Below, one piece after another: positions 901 to 26,571 of a DNA stretch of 62,498 nt. The notes beneath the pieces were generated by a model. That model was not told the DNA's origin and searched no databases. It saw only the letters and a list, made by a program, of their open reading frames with translations. The stretch is from positions 1-62,498 of the forward strand of contig CAYHRJ010000001.1 of the NCBI GenBank assembly GCA_964359095.1, written 5' to 3'. The DNA comes from an uncultured Gammaproteobacteria bacterium. GTDB taxonomy: Bacteria; Patescibacteriota; Patescibacteriia; UBA9934; GWF2-40-263. The position numbers and the translations under genes are program-made. Within the stretch, counting starts at the first letter, position 1, and each line of letters starts with the position of its first letter.

Positions 901-2151
901 CTACACGGTCTTGAGCGCCTGCTCAAGGTCGGCGATGATGTCGTCGGCATCCTCCAGCCCAACCGACAGGCGGATCATCCCTTCCGAGATACCGAAGCGA
1001 TCCAGGTCGGTGGGAGTGATGTCCGAATGGGTGTGTGTGCGCGGATGTTCGGCAAGCGACTCGGTGCTTCCCAGCGACACGGCGAGCTTCACGATCTTGA
1101 GCGCGTCGAGCACGCGGTACGCTTCCTCGCGCCCTCCGCGAACCGTGAAAGAGAGAAGCGATCCATGTCCCGAGCACTGGCTGCGAGCGCACACGCTTTG
1201 TTCACCACCAGACGTATCCGGGAAGAAGAGCTCTTCCACTACCGGGTGCTTGCGGAGGAACGCGACGATCTTCTCGGCCTTCTTCTCGGCCGCTTCCACG
1301 CGCACCTTGTACGTTTCCAGGCTACGCAGCAGCATCCACGCCGTATGCGGATCGGCCATGGTACCGAAGATGGTACGCGTCACCTTAACGCTCGCGATCA
1401 ATTCGGCGGAACCACACACGATGCCGGCGATGAGATCGCTGTGCCCGCCGATCGACTTGGTGGCCGAGTGAACCACGAGATCGGCACCCAGCGCGATCGG
1501 CCGGTAGAGCACCGGACCAAGCACCGTCGAATCAACGACGAGCATCGGCCGCGATGCGCCCAGAGCGCGCACGACCTGCGCAATTCCCTTCACGTCGACG
1601 AGCAAAAGCGTTGGGTTCGCCGGCGACTCGATGTAGACGACCTTCACCTTCTGGTCTTTGCACTCACACGCGGCGATCATCTCGGCCACTTCCTCACTGG
1701 AGGCCGTAGCCGGGAACGACTGCGTGTGGATGTTGAACGCGGGGAGCATATGCTCCATGAAGTAGTCCGTTCCGCCGTAGACCGGCGTGGAATAGAGCAC
1801 CATGTCCCCGGGTCGACACAAGGTGAAGAGCGTCGTGATGATGGCAGCCATGCCGCTGGCGCACAGCGCGGACTTCTCTGCGCCCTCGTACATCGACCAA
1901 CGCTCTTCGAAGATCTGAAGGTCGGGGTTGACGAGGCGCGAGTAGATGAGTCCATCTGGCGCGGTCGGATGTCCGTCGTCGAGACCGTACGCCTGCCGGA
2001 ACCAGTGGGCCAGCTGGCCTGCCGATTCCGCCACAAACGTGGAAGTGGCGAACAGGGGCGGCTTCACCGCTCCTTCACTGCGCGCCGGATCATATCCGCC
2101 GTGAAGCGCGAAGGTTTCGGGAGATACGGATGCGGGTAGGTCTTTTGACAC
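901..2151 (-). CDS. PLP-dependent Cys/Met metabolism enzyme (cystathionine gamma-synthase, methionine gamma-lyase or O-acetylhomoserine sulfhydrylase family)
   Basis: Contains the [18 protein letters not shown]-lysine motif and has the family-typical length. The ORF extends to a TTG at 2199. A GTG at 2151 is preferred as the start because it is preceded by AAGGAGGG five nt upstream. The gene is GC-rich relative to its neighbours. Confidence 0.85.
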
Positions 2152-2222
2152 GTACCCTCCTTTATTGCTGGGCGCCTCAACACTAGAACTTACCGACAAT
2201 TAAATCAATGCAGCGCTTGATC

Positions 2223-2680
2223 TTGTCATCCCGACCGAGGAGTCCAACGACGAGCGGAGGGATCTCTAGACCGATGTCTATTCTGTCATCCCGACCGAAG
2301 GCCTGTTCTACAGGCCGAAGCGGAGGGATCCCTAAAGCGCTTCCGACAGATCTTGCCACTCCGGATTCTCCTGGTTGATCAACCATTCTTTCTTTTCCCT
2401 CCTCCACTTCTTCAGTTGCTTCTCACGTTCGATCGCTTCCAAAATGTCACCACAGCTCTCCGCATAGACAAGGTTCGTACAGTTGTATTTGGTCGTGAAA
2501 CCAGGAACCAATTTCTGCTGATGTTCAAAAGAGCGACGTTGAATATTATTCGTCACTCCGATATATAAAACAGTGTGCGAAGGGTTGGTCATGATGTAGA
2601 CGAAATATTCACGATCGCTCATAAGACACTCGAGATCCCTCGGCTTCGCTCCCAGAGGTCGCTCCGCTCGGGATGACAAA
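2223..2680 (-). mobile_element. TIR-bounded 458-bp GIY-YIG cassette, copy 1
   Basis: Starts TTGTCATCCCGACCGAGG and ends GCTCCGCTCGGGATGACAAA, the approximate reverse complement. By eye it is identical to 2696-3153. Confidence 0.6.
2332..2622 (-). CDS. GIY-YIG nuclease family protein (UPF0213-like), 96 aa, copy 1
   Basis: MSDREYFVYIMTNPSHTVLYIGVTNNIQRRSFEHQQ... carries the GIY...YIG...R..EH motifs. The internal ATG at 2622 is taken as the start. The longer 182-aa ORF reads through the repeat. Confidence 0.85.
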   Translation of the reverse strand: MSDREYFVYIMTNPSHTVLYIGVTNNIQRRSFEHQQKLVPGFTTKYNCTNLVYAESCGDILEAIEREKQLKKWRREKKEWLINQENPEWQDLSEAL

Positions 2681-2695
2681 TGGAGGAACCTCAAT

Positions 2696-3153
2696 TTGTC
2701 ATCCCGACCGAGGAGTCCAACGACGAGCGGAGGGATCTCTAGACCGATGTCTATTCTGTCATCCCGACCGAAGGCCTGTTCTACAGGCCGAAGCGGAGGG
2801 ATCCCTAAAGCGCTTCCGACAGATCTTGCCACTCCGGATTCTCCTGGTTGATCAACCATTCTTTCTTTTCCCTCCTCCACTTCTTCAGTTGCTTCTCACG
2901 TTCGATCGCTTCCAAAATGTCACCACAGCTCTCCGCATAGACAAGGTTCGTACAGTTGTATTTGGTCGTGAAACCAGGAACCAATTTCTGCTGATGTTCA
3001 AAAGAGCGACGTTGAATATTATTCGTCACTCCGATATATAAAACAGTGTGCGAAGGGTTGGTCATGATGTAGACGAAATATTCACGATCGCTCATAAGAC
3101 ACTCGAGATCCCTCGGCTTCGCTCCCAGAGGTCGCTCCGCTCGGGATGACAAA
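2696..3153 (-). mobile_element. TIR-bounded 458-bp GIY-YIG cassette, copy 2
   Basis: Direct repeat of 2223-2680 after the 15-bp spacer tggaggaacctcaat. It ends 4 nt before the stop codon of the beta-CASP gene. Confidence 0.6.
2805..3095 (-). CDS. GIY-YIG nuclease family protein, 96 aa, copy 2
   Basis: The translation is identical to copy 1. Confidence 0.85.
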   Translation of the reverse strand: MSDREYFVYIMTNPSHTVLYIGVTNNIQRRSFEHQQKLVPGFTTKYNCTNLVYAESCGDILEAIEREKQLKKWRREKKEWLINQENPEWQDLSEAL

Positions 3154-3157
3154 ACAG

Positions 3158-4561
3158 TTAAACTTCATGACTACTCTGATACTCCGGGATCACCACCTCT
3201 GTCCCCAGCTTGTGTCTCAGGTGCGTAGCGAAGACCTCCTTGGCTTCTGGGTCGCCGTGGACGAGAAAAATCTTTTTTGGAATTACGCCGTCTTCAGGGC
3301 GCAGCCAGCGGGTGAGTTTGTTCATGTCGCCGTGGGCGGAAAACGCGCCGATAGCGCTGACTTGTGCATGAACAGGAATGTCGTCGCCAAAAATTTTGAC
3401 GCGTTTGGCGCCTTCATAAATTTTGCGCCCGAGCGTTCCTTGCGCTTGGTATCCAATGATGAGAACGCGATTTTTGTGATCAGGTAAATAACGCCGCAAG
3501 TGGTGCATGATGCGTCCCCCGGACATCATGCCGGAACCAGCGATGATAATCATCGGTGGAGTCGTGTTGTTGATCTCTTTGGATTCCTCACGGCTGAGCG
3601 TCTCACGCAGATTGGGGAAGCTGAAAAAATCTTTATCTGGTTGCGCAATGAGCGATGCATCAAACTTCAAATAATTTTGAAAGTGGCGATAGAGTTCTGT
3701 CGCACGGATCGCCATGGGGCTGTCGAGAAAAATGGGAATCTTCGTTTTGAGATCCTTCTGCAGCAACTGATCGATCTCGTAGAGCAATTCTTGTGTTCGC
3801 TCAATCGAGAACGCAGGGATCATGAGCACGCCACGGTCGTGGATGGTGTGCTGAATGGCATCGCGCAACATCGAGGAGCGCTGTTCGATAGGTTCATGTT
3901 CACGATGACCGTACGTAGATTCACAGATGACAACGTCTGCGTGAGACATCGGTTCCGTGTCTGGCAGAATCGGTACGTTATCGTTTCCGATGTCCCCTGA
4001 ATACACAAGACGTTTTCCTTCCTCGCCCACCATAGCTCCATTCGGAGCGACGGCGGGAGCGTCAAGAGAAATATAAGACGATCCAAGCACGTGTCCAGCT
4101 TCATGAAACATGACGACGATGCCAGGCGCAACCTCGAGATGCTCGTGATAACTGACGGCCTTCACTTGTTCAAACACGCGATTCACGTCTTCCATTTCAT
4201 ACAAAACTTCAGAGCCACACTTCTCTGCTTCCTCTTTCATGATGTGATGCGCGTCCTCGAGAACCAATTTGGCAAGACCAACGCACGGCTCGACCATGTA
4301 GATCGTTCCGGTAAATCCTTGACTCACAATCTTGGCAAGACGTCCAGTGTGATCTGCATGTGGGTGAGAGACAAAAATCGCCTCGATCGTCGAGGGATCA
4401 AACGCGAACGCATCTTTATTTTTTGATCCGCACATGTGCTCGCCTTGAAACATCCCGCAGTCAAAAAGATACTGTCGGATTTTGCCATTTGCATCCTTCA
4501 CCTCAACCTGGTGGCATGACCCTGTAACCTCTCGCGCCGCGCCGTGGAAGGTTAATTTCAT
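3158..4561 (-). CDS. MBL-fold beta-CASP ribonuclease/nuclease (CPSF/RNase J-like)
   Basis: Carries the HPHADHTG (HxHxDH) motif, and 467 aa is typical for the beta-CASP family. The C-terminal HGD motif is present. Confidence 0.8.
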   Translation of the reverse strand: MKLTFHGAAREVTGSCHQVEVKDANGKIRQYLFDCGMFQGEHMCGSKNKDAFAFDPSTIEAIFVSHPHADHTGRLAKIVSQGFTGTIYMVEPCVGLAKLVLEDAHHIMKEEAEKCGSEVLYEMEDVNRVFEQVKAVSYHEHLEVAPGIVVMFHEAGHVLGSSYISLDAPAVAPNGAMVGEEGKRLVYSGDIGNDNVPILPDTEPMSHADVVICESTYGHREHEPIEQRSSMLRDAIQHTIHDRGVLMIPAFSIERTQELLYEIDQLLQKDLKTKIPIFLDSPMAIRATELYRHFQNYLKFDASLIAQPDKDFFSFPNLRETLSREESKEINNTTPPMIIIAGSGMMSGGRIMHHLRRYLPDHKNRVLIIGYQAQGTLGRKIYEGAKRVKIFGDDIPVHAQVSAIGAFSAHGDMNKLTRWLRPEDGVIPKKIFLVHGDPEAKEVFATHLRHKLGTEVVIPEYQSSHEV

Positions 4562-7560: not shown

Positions 7561-7634
7561 TCCAGAGTCGTCTAAAGGCAGGACAGCTGGCTCTGAACCA
7601 GTCAATCGGGGTTCGAATCCCTGCTCGGGAACCA
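7561..7634 (+). tRNA. tRNA-Gln (anticodon CTG), CCA encoded
   Basis: Manual cloverleaf: acceptor tccagag/ctcggga with one A-G mismatch at 4:69, D arm gtct/ggac, anticodon loop cTCTGaa and T arm cgggg-ttcgaat-ccctg. It is a close paralog of the tRNA at 32598. Confidence 0.7.
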
Positions 7635-21926: not shown

Positions 21927-23294
21927 TCATGTTCCAATCGACTGTTTTCCTCTCAACGTCCTGTGATACTTCACTGCAAACCTGTGCGCTTCATCACGCG
22001 CGCGCTGGAACAGTTCTTTGCCTCGTGAGATGACGCGTTGTAGATCTTGATTGTCATGATCATACACGAGTCGATCTTGCTTGCGATCAAATCCTTTTGC
22101 GATACCAATAATCGGCACTTCCACGCCAAGTTCGTCCAAAACATCCTGCACGCGATTCACCTGCGGCTCTCCTCCGTCGATGATCATGAGCTCAGGAAGC
22201 TCCCAGGCTCCCACTGCACTCCCACCCCCCTTGATCCCCCCTCCGCCTTCGCCAAGGCTTCGGCGGACAGGTCGGGCAGGGGGGAAGGCTCTTTTCAAGC
22301 GTCTTCTCATCACTTCCTCCATGCACGCCACGTCGTTGGCTCCCTTGACCGTCTTGATCTTGAATTTGCGATAGAGGTTCTTCGCGGGTTTCCCTTCCAC
22401 AAACACCACCATCGATCCCACGGCAGATGTTCCCGAGATGTTACTGATGTCGTAGCCCTCGATGCGTCCCATGAGATTGACGGTGCCGTCTGTCTCCTTC
22501 TTGGTAAACGGCAGCTCGTAATCTTCTCGAGAGATGAGCGCGATGTCTTGGATGTGCGTCAGCGCGCTCAGCCGACGAACAAGCACAGCAGCTTTCTCAA
22601 ACTGAAGTTTCTTGGCGGCGAGCGTCATCTCTTTTTTGAGCTCGCGCTCGAGCTTCGCCTTCTTCCCATCAAAAAATAAAATCAGCTGTCGAATCACATG
22701 TCGATAATCCGTTTTGCTAATCGTCCCAGTACACACTCCTGGGCATTTCCCGATCTGCGCATTGAAGCATGGACGACGCTGTCCAGGCTCACACGTGGAC
22801 CAAGGAATACCGCGACGGATCATGTCCAAGGCCATTTTCAAAGAACGACTGCTGGTATACGGACCGAAGACGCGCAAAAAATTTTTTCCGGCGGAGCCTG
22901 ATCCAGCCTTTAGGCGGGACTTTCCCAACGTGAGTTCATGTCCACGAATCAACTGCGGACGCGGATAGGGCTCGTCCGTGATCACCAGATACAAAAACGT
23001 CTTATCATCGCGGCCAAGGATATTGTACTTGGGTCGCCGCGCTTGGATCTCGTTGGCCTCCAAGACCAATGCCTCGATCACAGTTGGCGTCTGGTGATAA
23101 TCGATTCTGGCAATCTGTGCGACCATCTCACCGATTCTGTCATCGTGAGCTTTTACAAAATACGAACCCACTCGTCGTTTCAGGGACGTGGCTTTGCCAA
23201 TATAAAGCAGATGACCTGCACGATCGTAATAAAAATACACACCCGGGCCATCAGGAAGTTTACCGTTTTTCAATTTGATTTCAGCTGGAATCAT
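21927..23294 (-). CDS. uvrC: Excinuclease ABC subunit C (short form, no C-terminal (HhH)2 domain)
   Basis: GIY-YIG domain (GVYFYYDRAGHLLYIGKATSLKRRV), a UVR-like helix (QFEKAAVLVRRL) and an endonuclease domain ending AHRFAVKYHR. Start set at the ATG at 23294. Contains an in-frame PE-A copy. Confidence 0.85.
   Translation of the reverse strand: MIPAEIKLKNGKLPDGPGVYFYYDRAGHLLYIGKATSLKRRVGSYFVKAHDDRIGEMVAQIARIDYHQTPTVIEALVLEANEIQARRPKYNILGRDDKTFLYLVITDEPYPRPQLIRGHELTLGKSRLKAGSGSAGKNFLRVFGPYTSSRSLKMALDMIRRGIPWSTCEPGQRRPCFNAQIGKCPGVCTGTISKTDYRHVIRQLILFFDGKKAKLERELKKEMTLAAKKLQFEKAAVLVRRLSALTHIQDIALISREDYELPFTKKETDGTVNLMGRIEGYDISNISGTSAVGSMVVFVEGKPAKNLYRKFKIKTVKGANDVACMEEVMRRRLKRAFPPARPVRRSLGEGGGGIKGGGSAVGAWELPELMIIDGGEPQVNRVQDVLDELGVEVPIIGIAKGFDRKQDRLVYDHDNQDLQRVISRGKELFQRARDEAHRFAVKYHRTLRGKQSIGT
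22202..22290. repeat. PE-A palindromic element, diverged in-frame copy inside uvrC
   Basis: Shares cccaggctcccac...tccgccttcgccaaggcttcggcggacagg...gggcagg with 6508-6598. It is translated as RPVRRSLGEGGGGIKGGGSAVGAWE. Confidence 0.75.
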
Positions 23295-23330
23295 ACTCAA
23301 AATCCTATCATGACTCTTGCCACGTCGCTC

Positions 23331-23373
23331 GCCACGATCGTTCGCGAACGACGTGGCTCGCGAACGACGTGGC
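23331..23373. repeat. PE-B palindrome (imperfect) with tandem half-site
   Basis: gccacgatcgttcgcgaacgacgtggc followed by a second tcgcgaacgacgtggc. It lies in the divergent uvrC/cupredoxin intergenic region. Confidence 0.8.
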
Positions 23374-23410
23374 TTGCGATTCAAGAACATGCCTGCTACC
23401 CTTCCTGCAT

Positions 23411-23950
23411 ATGAAATATTTCCTTTCTTTCTTGACAGTCCTTGCGCTTGTCGGCGCCGGATGCACTGCCAAAACTGATTCACAGACATCTGCTGAAGCA
23501 AACGCGGACACACAGCAGGTCGTTGAACAAGATATCAGCGAGCCGTCGGAAGTTGACTCTGGTGATACAGACACAACAGACGGAACCGTCGATGTGGAAC
23601 TGATCACACAAGATGTAGAGACCGGATCTACGACGAATGAAAACGGCGTGCCCGTCTTCGAGGTCGTGCTCGGTGCACAAGCAGACGTAGAAGTCGACAT
23701 GGAAGCAGGAAACTTTTTCTTTGACACAAAAGAAATCAAGGTCTCACCTGGTGACCGAGTCAGCATCACCTTCACCAAGAACTCGGGGTTCCATACCTTC
23801 GTCATCGATGAGATCGACTTAAACTTCACTGTCACGGAAGGCGAAGTTCTGAACTTCACCGCACCAACGGAACCAGGATCCTATCCCATTTACTGCGACA
23901 TCGGCTCCCACCGCGCGTTTGGGATGGAAGGAATGCTGATTGTGGAATAA
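23411..23950 (+). CDS. Cupredoxin (plastocyanin/azurin-like blue copper) lipoprotein
   Basis: Lipobox LVGAGC. Copper ligands are FHTF...YCDIGSHRAFGM (His, Cys, His, Met). Confidence 0.8.
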   Translation: MKYFLSFLTVLALVGAGCTAKTDSQTSAEANADTQQVVEQDISEPSEVDSGDTDTTDGTVDVELITQDVETGSTTNENGVPVFEVVLGAQADVEVDMEAGNFFFDTKEIKVSPGDRVSITFTKNSGFHTFVIDEIDLNFTVTEGEVLNFTAPTEPGSYPIYCDIGSHRAFGMEGMLIVE

Positions 23951-23973
23951 AGATTTTGATAAAGATCATCTGT

Positions 23974-24044
23974 AATTGCGAGGTTGCAACAACCGAAGCA
24001 ATCTCTTCCGGGATTGCTTCGTCGAAGACTCCTCGCAATGACAC
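23974..24044. repeat. Solo hairpin module related to the GIY-YIG cassette ends (PE-C)
   Basis: The minus-strand sequence gtcattgcgaggagtcttcgacgaagcaatc parallels gtcatcccgaccgaggagtccaacgacgagcggagggatc at 2225-2264. The loop core is the same and the arm changes are compensatory. Confidence 0.6.
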
Positions 24045-24063
24045 AACGGGCTTTCCCGTTTTT

Positions 24064-26571
24064 TCATTTCTTGAGAACCCGTTTCAAATACTGCCCCGTA
24101 TAACTCTTCGCATGCCGCGCAACATCCTCTGGCGTCCCTGCGATAACGACTTCCCCACCCAAATCTCCACCCTCAGGTCCAAGGTCAATAACCCAATCCG
24201 CGGTCTTGATCACGTCCAGATTGTGCTCAATTACAATGACTGAATTCCCTTTGCTCACGAGTTCATGGAGAACCTCGAGGAGTTTCTTCACATCCTCGAA
24301 GTGGAGTCCTGTCGTTGGTTCGTCCAAGAGGTACAACGTCTTTCCCGTCTGACGTTTGGCCAGCTCTGTGGAAAGTTTCACGCGCTGTGCTTCACCGCCT
24401 GAGAGTGTCGGTGCGGGCTGGCCGAGCTTCACATAGCCAAGCCCTACACGTTTAAGTGTTTCAAGTTTATCAGAGACAGCTGGGACGTCCTTGAAAAAAA
24501 CAGCGGCCTCTATCACCTCCATCTCGAGAACCTGAAAAATTGTTTTTTCCTTGTAGATGATCTCGAGCGTCTCACGATCAAACCTTCGACCTTTGCAAAT
24601 ATCGCACGTCACGTACACGGTCGGCAAGAAATGCATCTCGATGGCGATCAGTCCATGACCCTCGCAATTCTCGCACCGGCCACCAGGACGATTAAAACTG
24701 AACCGTCCTTTTTTGTACCCACGATAGCGAGCCTCTGCTGTCGAAGCAAACATGTCGCGAATCGGATCCCATGCGCCGGTGTACGTCGCGGGGTTGGATC
24801 GTGACGTGCGACCGATCGCTCCTTGATCGATCAAGATCGCCTTGTCGAGATACTCAACTCCGAGCAACGCCTCATGTGCGCCTGGAGTGTGCTTAGTTGC
24901 GTAGAGTCGCTTGCTGATTCCCTTGTACATCGTCTCATACGCGAGAGTGGATTTTCCCGAGCCTGAAACTCCTGTGATACAGACAAACCGTCGCAACGGA
25001 ATCTCGACGTTGATGTGCTTCAGATTATTTTGTGAGGCGCCCTTGATCTTGATCGCGTCCTTGCCAGGAGCACGGCGTTCTGTTGGAACATCAATTTTTT
25101 TGTCCCCACGCAAATACGCAGCGGTGAGCGATTTCTTGTCATCAATCACCTTCGACATCTCACCTTGAACAATGATGTGACCGCCATTCACTCCAGCCCC
25201 TGGACCAATCTCGACCATGTAGTCGCTCGCCAAAATTGTATCCTCATCATGTTCCACCACGATCACGGTGTTGCCGATGTCGCGTAGTTCCTCGAGTGTT
25301 TCAATCAAGCGATCATTGTCGCGCTGATGAAGTCCGATCGTTGGTTCGTCCAGCACGTACATGGCGCCAACGAGTTTCGAACCAACCTGGCTCGCGAGTC
25401 GGATACGCTGTGCCTCACCACCCGAGAGCGTCCCAGCCATGCGGTTGAGTGTCAGATAATGAAGACCGACGTCCAACATGAACTGCAGACGATTCTGAAT
25501 TTCTTTGAGGATGGATGTAGCGATCTGCGTTTGTTTCTCTGTGAGCGTGAGACTCTGAAAGTATTCAACGGCCTCCGCAATCGACATCCTCGTTATGTCG
25601 ACAATGGACTTGTGCGCCGGCAACCACACAAATAACGACTCTTTTCTCAACCTCGCTCCTGAGCACAACCCACACAGCTCTTCGGAGAACAGCTCCGCGG
25701 TTCCAAGTCCTGTACATTCAGGACAAGCCCCATACGGTGAGTTAAATGAGAACAAACGCGGCTCAATTTCAGGAAAAGAAAATCCGTCTTTTGGACAACT
25801 AAACTTGGCAGAGAGCATCTGTTCACTCTCATCTGGATAGATGATCGTCACTACATCGTTTCCACGATCCACGGCAATCTCGAGCGCGTCAGCAAGTCGC
25901 TGGCGCGCATCTTTGGGTGTGGTTGAAAAAGATGCGACCGTAATCGTATCAATCACAATCTCGATCGTGTGCTGCTTGTACCGTGCAAGTTTGATCTGCT
26001 CATCCAATCGAAACTCTTTCCCATCGATACGCACACGAGCGAATCCAGAATTGTAGAGATCGTACAACATCTGGTAGTACTCACCTTTTCTTCCTCGCAC
26101 CACCGGCGCAAGAATCTTGATAGATCCTGTCGTTCCATTTGCTTTCTCGAGAACTAAGTCCACCATCTCTTCATTGGTCAACTTCTGAATGGCTTCCCCA
26201 CAGGTGACACAATGTGGTGTTCCAACACGAGCAAACAACACGCGGAGGTAATCGTAAATCTCTGTGATCGTCGCGACCGTCGAACGTGGGTTACTGCCAT
26301 GTGCCTTCTGATCAATCGAAATCGCCGGCGACAACCCTTCGATCTCATCTACGTCTGGCTTCTCCATCTGTCCCAAAAACTGCCGCGCATACGCAGACAA
26401 CGATTCCACATACCGACGCTGTCCTTCGGCAAAAATCGTATCAAACGCCAAAGACGACTTCCCCGACCCTGAAACGCCGGTAAAGCAAATGAGTTTATTG
26501 CGCGGCAACTCTAAACTGATATTTTTCAGATTATGTTCCCGCGCACCCTTGATAATGATTTTGTCTTGCAT
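24064..26571 (-). CDS. uvrA: Excinuclease ABC subunit A (835 aa, apparently lacking the insertion domain)
   Basis: Two ABC modules ([18 protein letters not shown], 2x LSGGEAQR), zinc modules and a UvrB-binding region. Confidence 0.92.

Follow-up and report, generated by a model that had tools for sequence, protein, structure and literature searches.

The window analysed here is a contig of 62,498 nt (CAYHRJ010000001.1, forward strand) from an uncultured groundwater bacterium. Near one end it carries two units of 458 bp (2223-2680 and 2696-3153), arranged head to tail on the minus strand and separated by a spacer of 15 nt. Each unit contains one gene, here called ssn, for a 96-aa nuclease of the GIY-YIG superfamily, and three hairpin modules that surround it. 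We argue below that each unit is very probably a cassette of the Ssn type, in which a small GIY-YIG endonuclease gene is associated with a repeat called SRM (Chenal et al., Nat Commun 2025, PMC11893778). The modules are labelled accordingly in the following list of the parts of the pair.

2223..2680, minus strand: cassette copy A, second in gene orientation, 458 bp, identical to copy B
2225..2264, plus strand: downstream SRM 2 of copy A ('D2'), antisense, from the structural module scan
2285..2330, plus strand: downstream SRM 1 of copy A ('D1'), antisense, from the structural module scan
2332..2622, minus strand: ssn gene copy A, its protein identical to that of copy B
2634..2677, minus strand: upstream SRM of copy A ('U' type), sense, from the structural module scan
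2681..2695, no strand: spacer, a unique near-palindrome of 15 nt
2696..3153, minus strand: cassette copy B, first in gene orientation, SRM-ssn-SRM-SRM, 458 bp, starting 4 nt after the stop codon of a beta-CASP gene
2698..2737, plus strand: downstream SRM 2 of copy B ('D2'), antisense, outermost module, GTCATCCCGACCGAGGAGTCCAACGACGAGCGGAGGGATC
2758..2803, plus strand: downstream SRM 1 of copy B ('D1'), antisense, abutting the stop codon, GTCATCCCGACCGAAGGCCTGTTCTACAGGCCGAAGCGGAGGGATC
2805..3095, minus strand: ssn gene copy B, a 96-aa single-domain GIY-YIG nuclease (translation, PF01541)
3107..3150, minus strand: upstream SRM of copy B ('U' type), sense, GTCATCCCGAGCGGAGCGACCTCTGGGAGCGAAGCCGAGGGATC, ending 11 nt before the ATG

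The two units are 100% identical over their 458 bp, and the identity runs 0 nt past either border, so that the periodic stretch of the pair measures 931 nt (473 + 458) and not 946 nt. The initial annotation, made by eye, had described two identical units with a 15-bp spacer, unit ends that are near reverse complements of each other, and an insertion 4 nt past the stop of a beta-CASP gene, and all of this held on comparison. Each unit starts with TTGTCATCCCGACCG and ends with CGCTCGGGATGACAA, which together form a 15-nt inverted repeat (93% complementary). Read along the minus strand, the beta-CASP hydrolase (4561..3158) is followed after 4 nt by unit B, and then by the spacer, unit A and a pyridoxal phosphate (PLP) enzyme (2199..901). 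In gene orientation each unit reads U (sense), 11 nt, the frame from ATG to stop, D1 (antisense, abutting the stop) and D2 (antisense). The number of modules on the two sides of the gene, one upstream and two downstream, had also been given correctly; their sense had been given in window coordinates and has to be reversed, the gene being encoded on the minus strand.

The spacer (2681-2695) is unique in the window and near-palindromic, with 6/7 positions complementary (ATGGAGG-AA-CCTCAAT, the preceding A being counted), and together with the abutting end tags it makes up a 22-nt inverted repeat (91% complementary). We found it only in two-copy and scaffolded contigs from the Hainich groundwater, which are described below. 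Because it is similar to neither flank of the pair, a plain tandem duplication is not supported.

The 96-aa protein matches the Pfam family PF01541 (GIY-YIG) over residues 6-78 with an E-value of 2e-15, which confirms the single GIY-YIG reading frame of 96 codons first seen in each unit. It consists of the GIY-YIG domain only: neither the Pfam search nor the AlphaFold2 model, which shows one compact GIY-YIG domain (pLDDT 91.8), revealed an accessory or DNA-binding domain. The residues Y9, Y20, G22, R30, E33, H34, E67 and N86 are invariant among 31 homologues, and all of them are kept. Judged from the sequence, both motif tyrosines, the arginine and the metal-binding glutamate, that is the catalytic residues expected of an Ssn member, are intact, and the protein has the size and composition of such members (~94-100 aa, a single GIY-YIG domain, no accessory domain). 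The closest solved structures are UPF0213 (1zg2, profile E 2.8e-6) and then, by fold, Slx1 and UvrC-N. Of Slx1, UvrC-N and I-TevI, against which profiling had been proposed initially, the first two are thus matched by fold, and the profile match to I-TevI (1mk0) has an E-value of 0.53. No structure of the Ssn family itself turned up in the PDB in sequence or fold searches. At E<=1e-10 the family comprises 3,595 representatives of 50%-identity clusters, and is therefore very large; the defence and phage libraries returned weak motif-level matches only.

Gene models of this family are easily distorted by the repeats. Readthrough gives false extensions, such as a 182-aa open reading frame (2332-2880) across the spacer, and the gene caller output for L001, one of the other Hainich contigs, is a 175-aa product of repeat readthrough. 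Many database homologues are 130-160 aa long (P0016, P0018, P0020, P0030), with terminal repeat-derived peptides (CHSDRGVGRRAEESL, VISTERSEWRNP, LDSLRSLEMT).

Each unit holds three modules of the form GTCATCCCGA...GAGGGATC, the upstream one in sense and the two downstream ones in antisense orientation. Exact GTCATCCCGA sites occur 6 times in the 62.5-kb window, all within the pair, where a simple base-frequency estimate gives a chance expectation of ~0.1 for the whole window; when up to one mismatch is allowed, 13 sites are found and 5.1 expected. All six cassette modules read GTC, then ATCCC...GGGAT, then C, so that a GTC tag precedes the palindrome and a C follows it. They are 40-46 nt long and have an extra inner stem-loop. 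A first loose structural scan of the window had a high background (19 found, 8.8 expected) and was used as a locator only and not as a statistic. As single-stranded DNA (ssDNA), the D1 hairpin has a folding energy of -12.6 kcal/mol (z -3.6 versus shuffles) and is the sole cassette module clearly above shuffled sequence. Folding energy was not used for U and D2, because only D1 and the left half of a gene-less doublet (see below) beat shuffles; U and D2 are taken as putative hairpins because of their common 5-bp closing stem and of covariation in the family. A metagenome scan for the U-type module returned the same Hainich contig only. Rfam at gathering thresholds gave six tRNAs only in the whole window, and no match over 2100-3300 at E<=10; the modules are therefore not a curated RNA family. 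The six tRNA genes lie at 7561, 32598, 35351, 36063, 45001 and 61569.

That such repeats belong to such genes was seen in a set of 80 loci (L008-L087) that encode homologues 53-65% identical to the 96-aa protein and come from Patescibacteria, Acidobacteriota, Bacteroidota, Latescibacterota, Clostridia, Planctomycetota, Chloroflexota, Rickettsia and others. The design common to these loci is TGTCAT-arm...arm'-TC before the start codon and its reverse complement after the stop. The hairpin arms covary and differ by lineage (ATTCC, ATCCC, ATTGC, ATTTC, ATCCT and more), with 25 distinct arm types. A tag-plus-hairpin module lies within 250 nt of the gene in 60/80 loci, upstream in sense in 45, downstream in antisense in 43 and on both sides in 31, and the module density is 4.1/kb near the gene versus 0.33/kb further off (12x). 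Of the outward-facing GTCAT tags no more than 150 nt from the gene, 92/139 (66%) close a stem of 5 bp with a C behind it, compared with 60/431 (14%) for tags more than 400 nt away and 4/597 (0.7%) in shuffled sequence. Furthermore, features outside the scan criteria are conserved, namely a GA behind the 5' arm (84%) and a T ahead of GTC (80%). The modules are 25-60 nt long (median 34), and in these other loci the upstream one often ends ~10 nt before the start codon. These observations support a specific tie between the repeats and the small GIY-YIG gene family across bacteria, and the co-occurrence of hairpin modules with GIY-YIG genes elsewhere, which the initial annotation had wished to see checked, is borne out. 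The loop of 70/282 modules in this set contains GCGNAGC; d(GCGAAGC) is a very stable DNA mini-hairpin. A second ssn copy within 2 kb was found in 0/80 of the loci, hence the tandem form is unusual.

In the published system, the SsnA protein of Neisseria meningitidis has 94 aa and a single domain, GIY-YIG (CDD cd10448). It binds its repeat, NTS (CGTCATTCCCGCGMAVGCGGGAATCYRG; site CGTCATTCCCGCG..GCGGGAATC), solely as ssDNA and in a single orientation, and cuts a few nt upstream of it, in the variable flank. Cutting depends most on the 3 nt that precede the palindrome, and binding on the C that follows it. The characterised Ssn members are hairpin-guided, strand-specific ssDNA nickases that are inactive on double-stranded DNA (dsDNA) and do not bind RNA, and homologues of three further species cut beside their own repeats. 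The related motif, SRM, is found near 71% of Ssn homologues and on both sides of 42%, and Rickettsia is listed among the repeat-rich hosts. The authors likened NTS-ssnA-NTS to an insertion sequence (IS), and to repetitive extragenic palindromic (REP) elements with their transposases (all from PMC11893778).

Each cassette copy of our window likewise has inverted repeats on both sides of its gene. Moreover, a Rickettsia homologue shares 56% identity (E 4e-37) with the 96-aa protein, and the repeat upstream of its gene, TGTCATTCCCGCGCAGGCGAGAATCCAG, comes very close to the Neisseria NTS. The proposed connection with the published clade is indirect and passes through this Rickettsia homologue, with size, domain, residues and repeat design as the other support. 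Neisseria is absent among the matches listed for the 96-aa protein, and the top 120 matches of the Rickettsia query are Rickettsia and uncultured lineages only. Taking this evidence together, we estimate at roughly 85% the probability that each 458-bp unit is an Ssn-type cassette, that is a small GIY-YIG endonuclease gene bracketed by cognate SRMs in inverted orientation.

Several observations weigh against this assignment. The published SRM pattern, HGTCWYN(0-2)YYVSBRHN(0-5)WNVSBRGN(0-2)RNCYNB, has 0 matches in the window, while a Neisseria-type NTS used as a control does match it, and it matches 5/80 of the homologous loci versus 60/80 for the tag-plus-stem rule. As ssDNA, U and D2 are no more stable than shuffled sequence. 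Finally, the repeats of the window are the cassette modules and one doublet only, and the genome is not visibly repeat-rich. The published pattern allows at most ~35 nt and a stem of the type YYVSBR, which the repeats of these lineages do not fit; even a common repeat type, GTCATTCTGAGCGNAGCGAAGAATC, fails its stem definition. We take the pattern as a search heuristic and not as a family definition, and read the mismatch as greater repeat diversity. As the repeats are more varied than the pattern, surveys based on it under-count the system.

How such a cassette would work can be proposed by analogy with the Neisseria and Wolbachia enzymes, from which we infer the ssDNA nickase activity of the 96-aa protein, its cut positions and its cellular role. 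The protein would ignore dsDNA and RNA. An SRM would be bound only when single-stranded and in the GTC-palindrome-C orientation, and would be nicked a few nt 5' of the GTC. Since the tags face outward, the predicted nicks would fall on opposite strands at the unit borders, which lie 2-3 nt beyond each GTC. Two predicted sites on the same strand would be exactly one 473-nt unit apart in the tandem form. Candidate cellular roles are the control of incoming or replicating ssDNA, as in Neisseria transformation, and/or the propagation of the nuclease's own repeats.

Repeats of the same design also occur without a gene. The window has one such element, whose two halves are as follows.

23972..24003, plus strand: left half of the doublet, whose tag is degenerate (GTA, not GTC), GTAATTGCGAGGTTGCAACAACCGAAGCAATC; ssDNA hairpin z -2.4
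24012..24042, minus strand: right half of the doublet, a solo SRM with ATTGC/GCAAT arms, GTCATTGCGAGGAGTCTTCGACGAAGCAATC

A solo module had been reported at 23974-24044; it is real, and turned out to be an inverted doublet of two modules (~23972-24044) with ATTGC/GCAAT arms and GAGGAGTC..CGACGA as its core. As a whole the doublet folds far better than shuffles (z -5.6). Modules of the ATTGC type are also found beside ssn genes of other Uhrbacteria (L019, L022, L029). The element lies between two convergent genes, a cupredoxin-like gene (23369-23950, plus strand) and uvrA (24064-26571, minus strand); in this region (21927-26571) uvrC, which has a GIY-YIG N-terminus of its own, and uvrA bracket the cupredoxin-like gene and the doublet. 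Gene-less doublets also adjoin the cassettes of the two closest homologues (L089, 3683-3781 and 4406-4503; L093, 4389-4479). These consist of a U-type module, ~13 nt and a D-type module in the opposite orientation (U(+)/D(-)), and look like deletion derivatives of cassettes, comparable to MITEs or to REPINs. Truncated module ends (..CCTCGGTCGGGATGACAC) are repeated near the same two cassettes.

The pair is flanked by two genes on its own strand.

901..2199, minus strand: Cys/Met-metabolism PLP enzyme, downstream neighbour, absent at this position in relatives
3158..4561, minus strand: beta-CASP / metallo-beta-lactamase-fold hydrolase with an RNA-specificity domain, upstream neighbour, the last gene whose order is kept in comparison with related Uhrbacteria

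Proteins named Candidatus Uhrbacteria share 80-89% identity with the beta-CASP protein, and on this evidence the host is a Candidatus Uhrbacteria (Patescibacteria) population of the Hainich groundwater. Three Uhrbacteria relatives share the order Dus, 128-aa gene, VKOR, beta-CASP, and DNA homology with them reaches as far as the beta-CASP stop (about window position 3156); past this point they have other genes (tRNA, MetRS and others) and neither the cassette nor the PLP gene. The PLP gene has a GC content of 0.61 versus ~0.49 in the surrounding 10 kb and is therefore probably foreign (horizontally acquired). It is followed by a hairpin and T-run terminator and then by lepA (region 1-820).

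The exact 96-aa protein is encoded on 8 contigs, the window included, from independent Hainich groundwater assemblies, and at the same locus in 8/8. Two copies and the spacer are present in 4/8 (the window, L001, L002 and L005), and one copy without spacer in 3/8 (L004, L006 and L007). In the eighth, L003, the first copy and the spacer are followed by 55 nt of the second copy, then by a scaffold gap of 100 N (2793-2892) and the last 55 nt; that assembler left the repeat unresolved there. The plasmid collection gave no blastn match to the 458-bp unit. The search for an empty site in the Uhrbacteria relatives, the three nearest, found none, and none can be defined, because the gene order breaks at the pair (beta-CASP stop). 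The further copies and empty sites that might have been expected of the cassette did not appear in these searches.

The closest homologues sit elsewhere. Those 74% and 67% identical lie between a DNA-alkylation-repair gene and RuvB, and between an SMC-like gene and hypothetical genes, respectively, and their cassettes carry the same end types (U starts GTCATCYCGAGCGGAGC, D starts GTCATCYCGACCRAGGCC). A Rickettsia endosymbiont of Argas persicus carries, between sdhC and sdhD (L076, 1914-2306), an ssn-type gene whose repeats are close to the Neisseria type, and in R. bellii and R. conorii a homologue lies between nuoD and nuoE (L100-L105, around 2501-2773); the Rickettsia copies thus occupy gaps within conserved respiratory operons. 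The sdhC/sdhD position is known from one genome and the nuoD/nuoE position is shared, therefore some positions are new and others old and stable. The different neighbourhoods of the closest homologues and the Rickettsia positions fit movement over evolutionary time.

Does the cassette still move? An active, autonomous selfish element travelling via ssDNA, in the manner of IS200/IS605 or REPIN/RAYT, would overlap with the Ssn-cassette assignment and add current mobility to it. The gene-less U/D doublets would then be non-autonomous derivatives, and the tandem pair a fresh transposition product or intermediate. Such an element would account for the IS-like layout, for the left (U) and right (D) ends, which differ from each other and are conserved among cassettes with 67-74% protein identity, and for the U(+)/D(-) doublets by the cassettes of L089 and L093 as well as the doublet at ~23972-24044. 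It would likewise suit the non-orthologous loci of the closest homologues, the Rickettsia copies in the sdhC|sdhD and nuoD|nuoE gaps, the coincidence of the unit borders with predicted nick sites, the apparent variation of copy number among the Hainich assemblies and the position of the cassette exactly at a gene-order break. However, the exact protein occupies one locus only in all eight contigs, the three Uhrbacteria relatives show no empty site, none of the 80 other loci has a second copy within 2 kb, and the nuoD|nuoE position, being common to R. bellii and R. conorii, speaks for vertical inheritance over a long time. The copy-number differences can moreover be explained by assembly. GIY-YIG nucleases are not known to have strand-transfer or ligation activity, which weighs further against a self-sufficient element, and we consider current mobility possible and somewhat doubtful. 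The initial view of a minimal mobile unit is therefore kept for the inverted-repeat cassette without a transposase, and not for recent mobility, given the one locus in 8/8 contigs.

A still stronger proposal would be that the pair itself represents ongoing movement or amplification of the Ssn cassette through ssDNA, which we regard as unlikely. The cassette's own nuclease would nick the outward tags, of which two on the same strand lie exactly one 473-nt unit apart in the tandem form, and unit-length strands could thus be released or copied, for example by rolling-circle or template-switch replication, the spacer being a scar; one-copy and two-copy contigs of different wells would then be real population variants. 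If true, this would be the first natural evidence of SRM-ssn-SRM units as active mobile elements, and not domesticated ones.

Could the duplication instead be an assembly artefact, the genome having a single cassette? Four features of the data would agree with this: the one-copy contigs without spacer (3/8), the scaffold gap within the second copy of L003, a coverage of just 2-7x as judged from the Hainich contig names, and the identity of the copies, which is expected when a short-read graph goes round a loop. Indeed, perfect identity is weak evidence, because short-read assembly walks the 473-bp loop twice from the same reads, and a synonymous T>C variant present in both copies of L001 and L005 is the expected product of assembler bubble-popping. 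However, the junction of unit end, unique 15-nt spacer and unit start was assembled independently in 5/8 contigs (the window, L001, L002, L003 and L005), from different samples and assemblies, so reads that span it must exist. Mis-joining of the flanks cannot yield the spacer, since it is similar to neither flank and was found nowhere else. We thus hold a single-copy genome to be quite unlikely; at least two head-to-tail copies of the cassette are the simplest reading and a likely one, while their exact number and their 'perfect identity' are not secure. The initial annotation had deduced from this identity a very recent duplication or an assembly effect; the second could account for the identity, and a simple duplication is not supported, the spacer being unlike the flanks.

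It is very unlikely that the modules function chiefly in RNA, by terminating transcription, stabilising mRNA or forming translational hairpins as classical REP elements do, with an incidental link to the nuclease. Some of their features would suit such a function: D1 is a strong hairpin abutting the stop codon, the purine-rich 3' arm (GAGGGA) of U, a module whose end lies 11 nt ahead of the ATG, resembles a ribosome-binding site, and the doublet at ~23972-24044 lies between convergent genes. Against it, no T-tract terminator is found in 2100-3300, no Rfam match is obtained even at E<=10, the outward orientation of the tags on two strands suits recognition of DNA and not of one transcript, and the published enzyme binds ssDNA and not RNA (PMC11893778). 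RNA-level roles are possible as side effects of the modules, and they leave the two-strand orientation rule unexplained. A scan of 2100-3300 for promoter and terminator consensus sequences found none, so the ssn genes are probably co-transcribed with their neighbours.

The homing-like spread suggested initially, by a free-standing GIY-YIG homing endonuclease that cuts dsDNA at cassette-free alleles and spreads by repair, is highly improbable: superfamily membership, an intergenic and repeat-flanked gene and weak matches to homing-endonuclease models (TIGR01453, E 0.002; phrog_5123, E 8e-4) are what it could claim, but these matches are far under the family cut-offs (18.2 bits versus 56 for TIGR01453, over residues 7-38 only) and cover only the shared GIY-YIG motif, the 96-aa core has neither the linker nor the DNA-binding domain that an I-TevI-type enzyme needs (1mk0 profile E 0.53), the gene lies outside any intron, intein or conserved target gene, and the characterised Ssn members are ssDNA nickases inactive on dsDNA (PMC11893778).

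The system as a whole is already published, its IS-like architecture and the analogy with REP elements and transposases included (PMC11893778). What the present locus adds is modest: a member from Patescibacteria, long composite repeats outside the published pattern, left and right ends that differ from each other, along with gene-less doublets, and also two cassettes head to tail whose palindromic spacer is odd and whose number apparently varies from sample to sample. A nuclease-repeat system that entered the literature only in 2025 is thereby extended to an uncultured Patescibacteria lineage. The pair, the gene-less doublets and the variable positions offer a place to test the question of the authors, whether the cassettes are mobile or domesticated (PMC11893778). 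Furthermore, each nuclease-repeat pair is a candidate reagent, because such enzymes are being developed as sequence-specific ssDNA cutters. No follow-up literature on the mobility of Ssn cassettes was found.

Among known systems, homing enzymes of the I-TevI type share with the cassette protein the catalytic motif and the condition of a small nuclease gene associated with mobile elements; they differ in having a long linker and a DNA-binding domain, both lacking here, in cutting dsDNA and in residing in introns or near their targets. UPF0213/YhbQ proteins (1zg2, 1ywl) are the nearest solved structures and have a common fold and a similar size. However, they are ~24% identical and lack the GFTxKY and NPxWxDL motifs of the family studied here, and the relation to 1zg2 is seen at the profile level (2.8e-6) and not with a single sequence (phmmer E 0.39).

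The REP/REPIN-RAYT and IS200/IS605 systems resemble the cassette in their one small nuclease gene between inverted hairpin repeats, in their gene-less inverted doublets and in the recognition of hairpins on ssDNA, which for the cassette would hold by analogy with Ssn. They differ in their enzyme, an HUH/Y1 tyrosine transposase. The absence of a transposase, claimed from the start, was borne out: the sole gene between the repeats encodes a GIY-YIG nuclease, for which no joining activity is known. The tag differs as well, being GTC(AT) here and not GTAG or CGTC.

From the published Ssn/SRM system the cassette departs in its repeats, which are 40-46 nt long, have an inner stem-loop and fall outside the published search pattern. 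It also has two repeat types at its two ends, a doubled 3' end and a head-to-tail arrangement, and its host belongs to Patescibacteria (candidate phyla radiation, CPR), a lineage without mention in PMC11893778. With that system it shares a single-domain GIY-YIG protein of ~95 aa, inverted and oriented repeats of GTC, palindrome and C around the gene, gene-less repeats of the same design, and a family that extends across many phyla.

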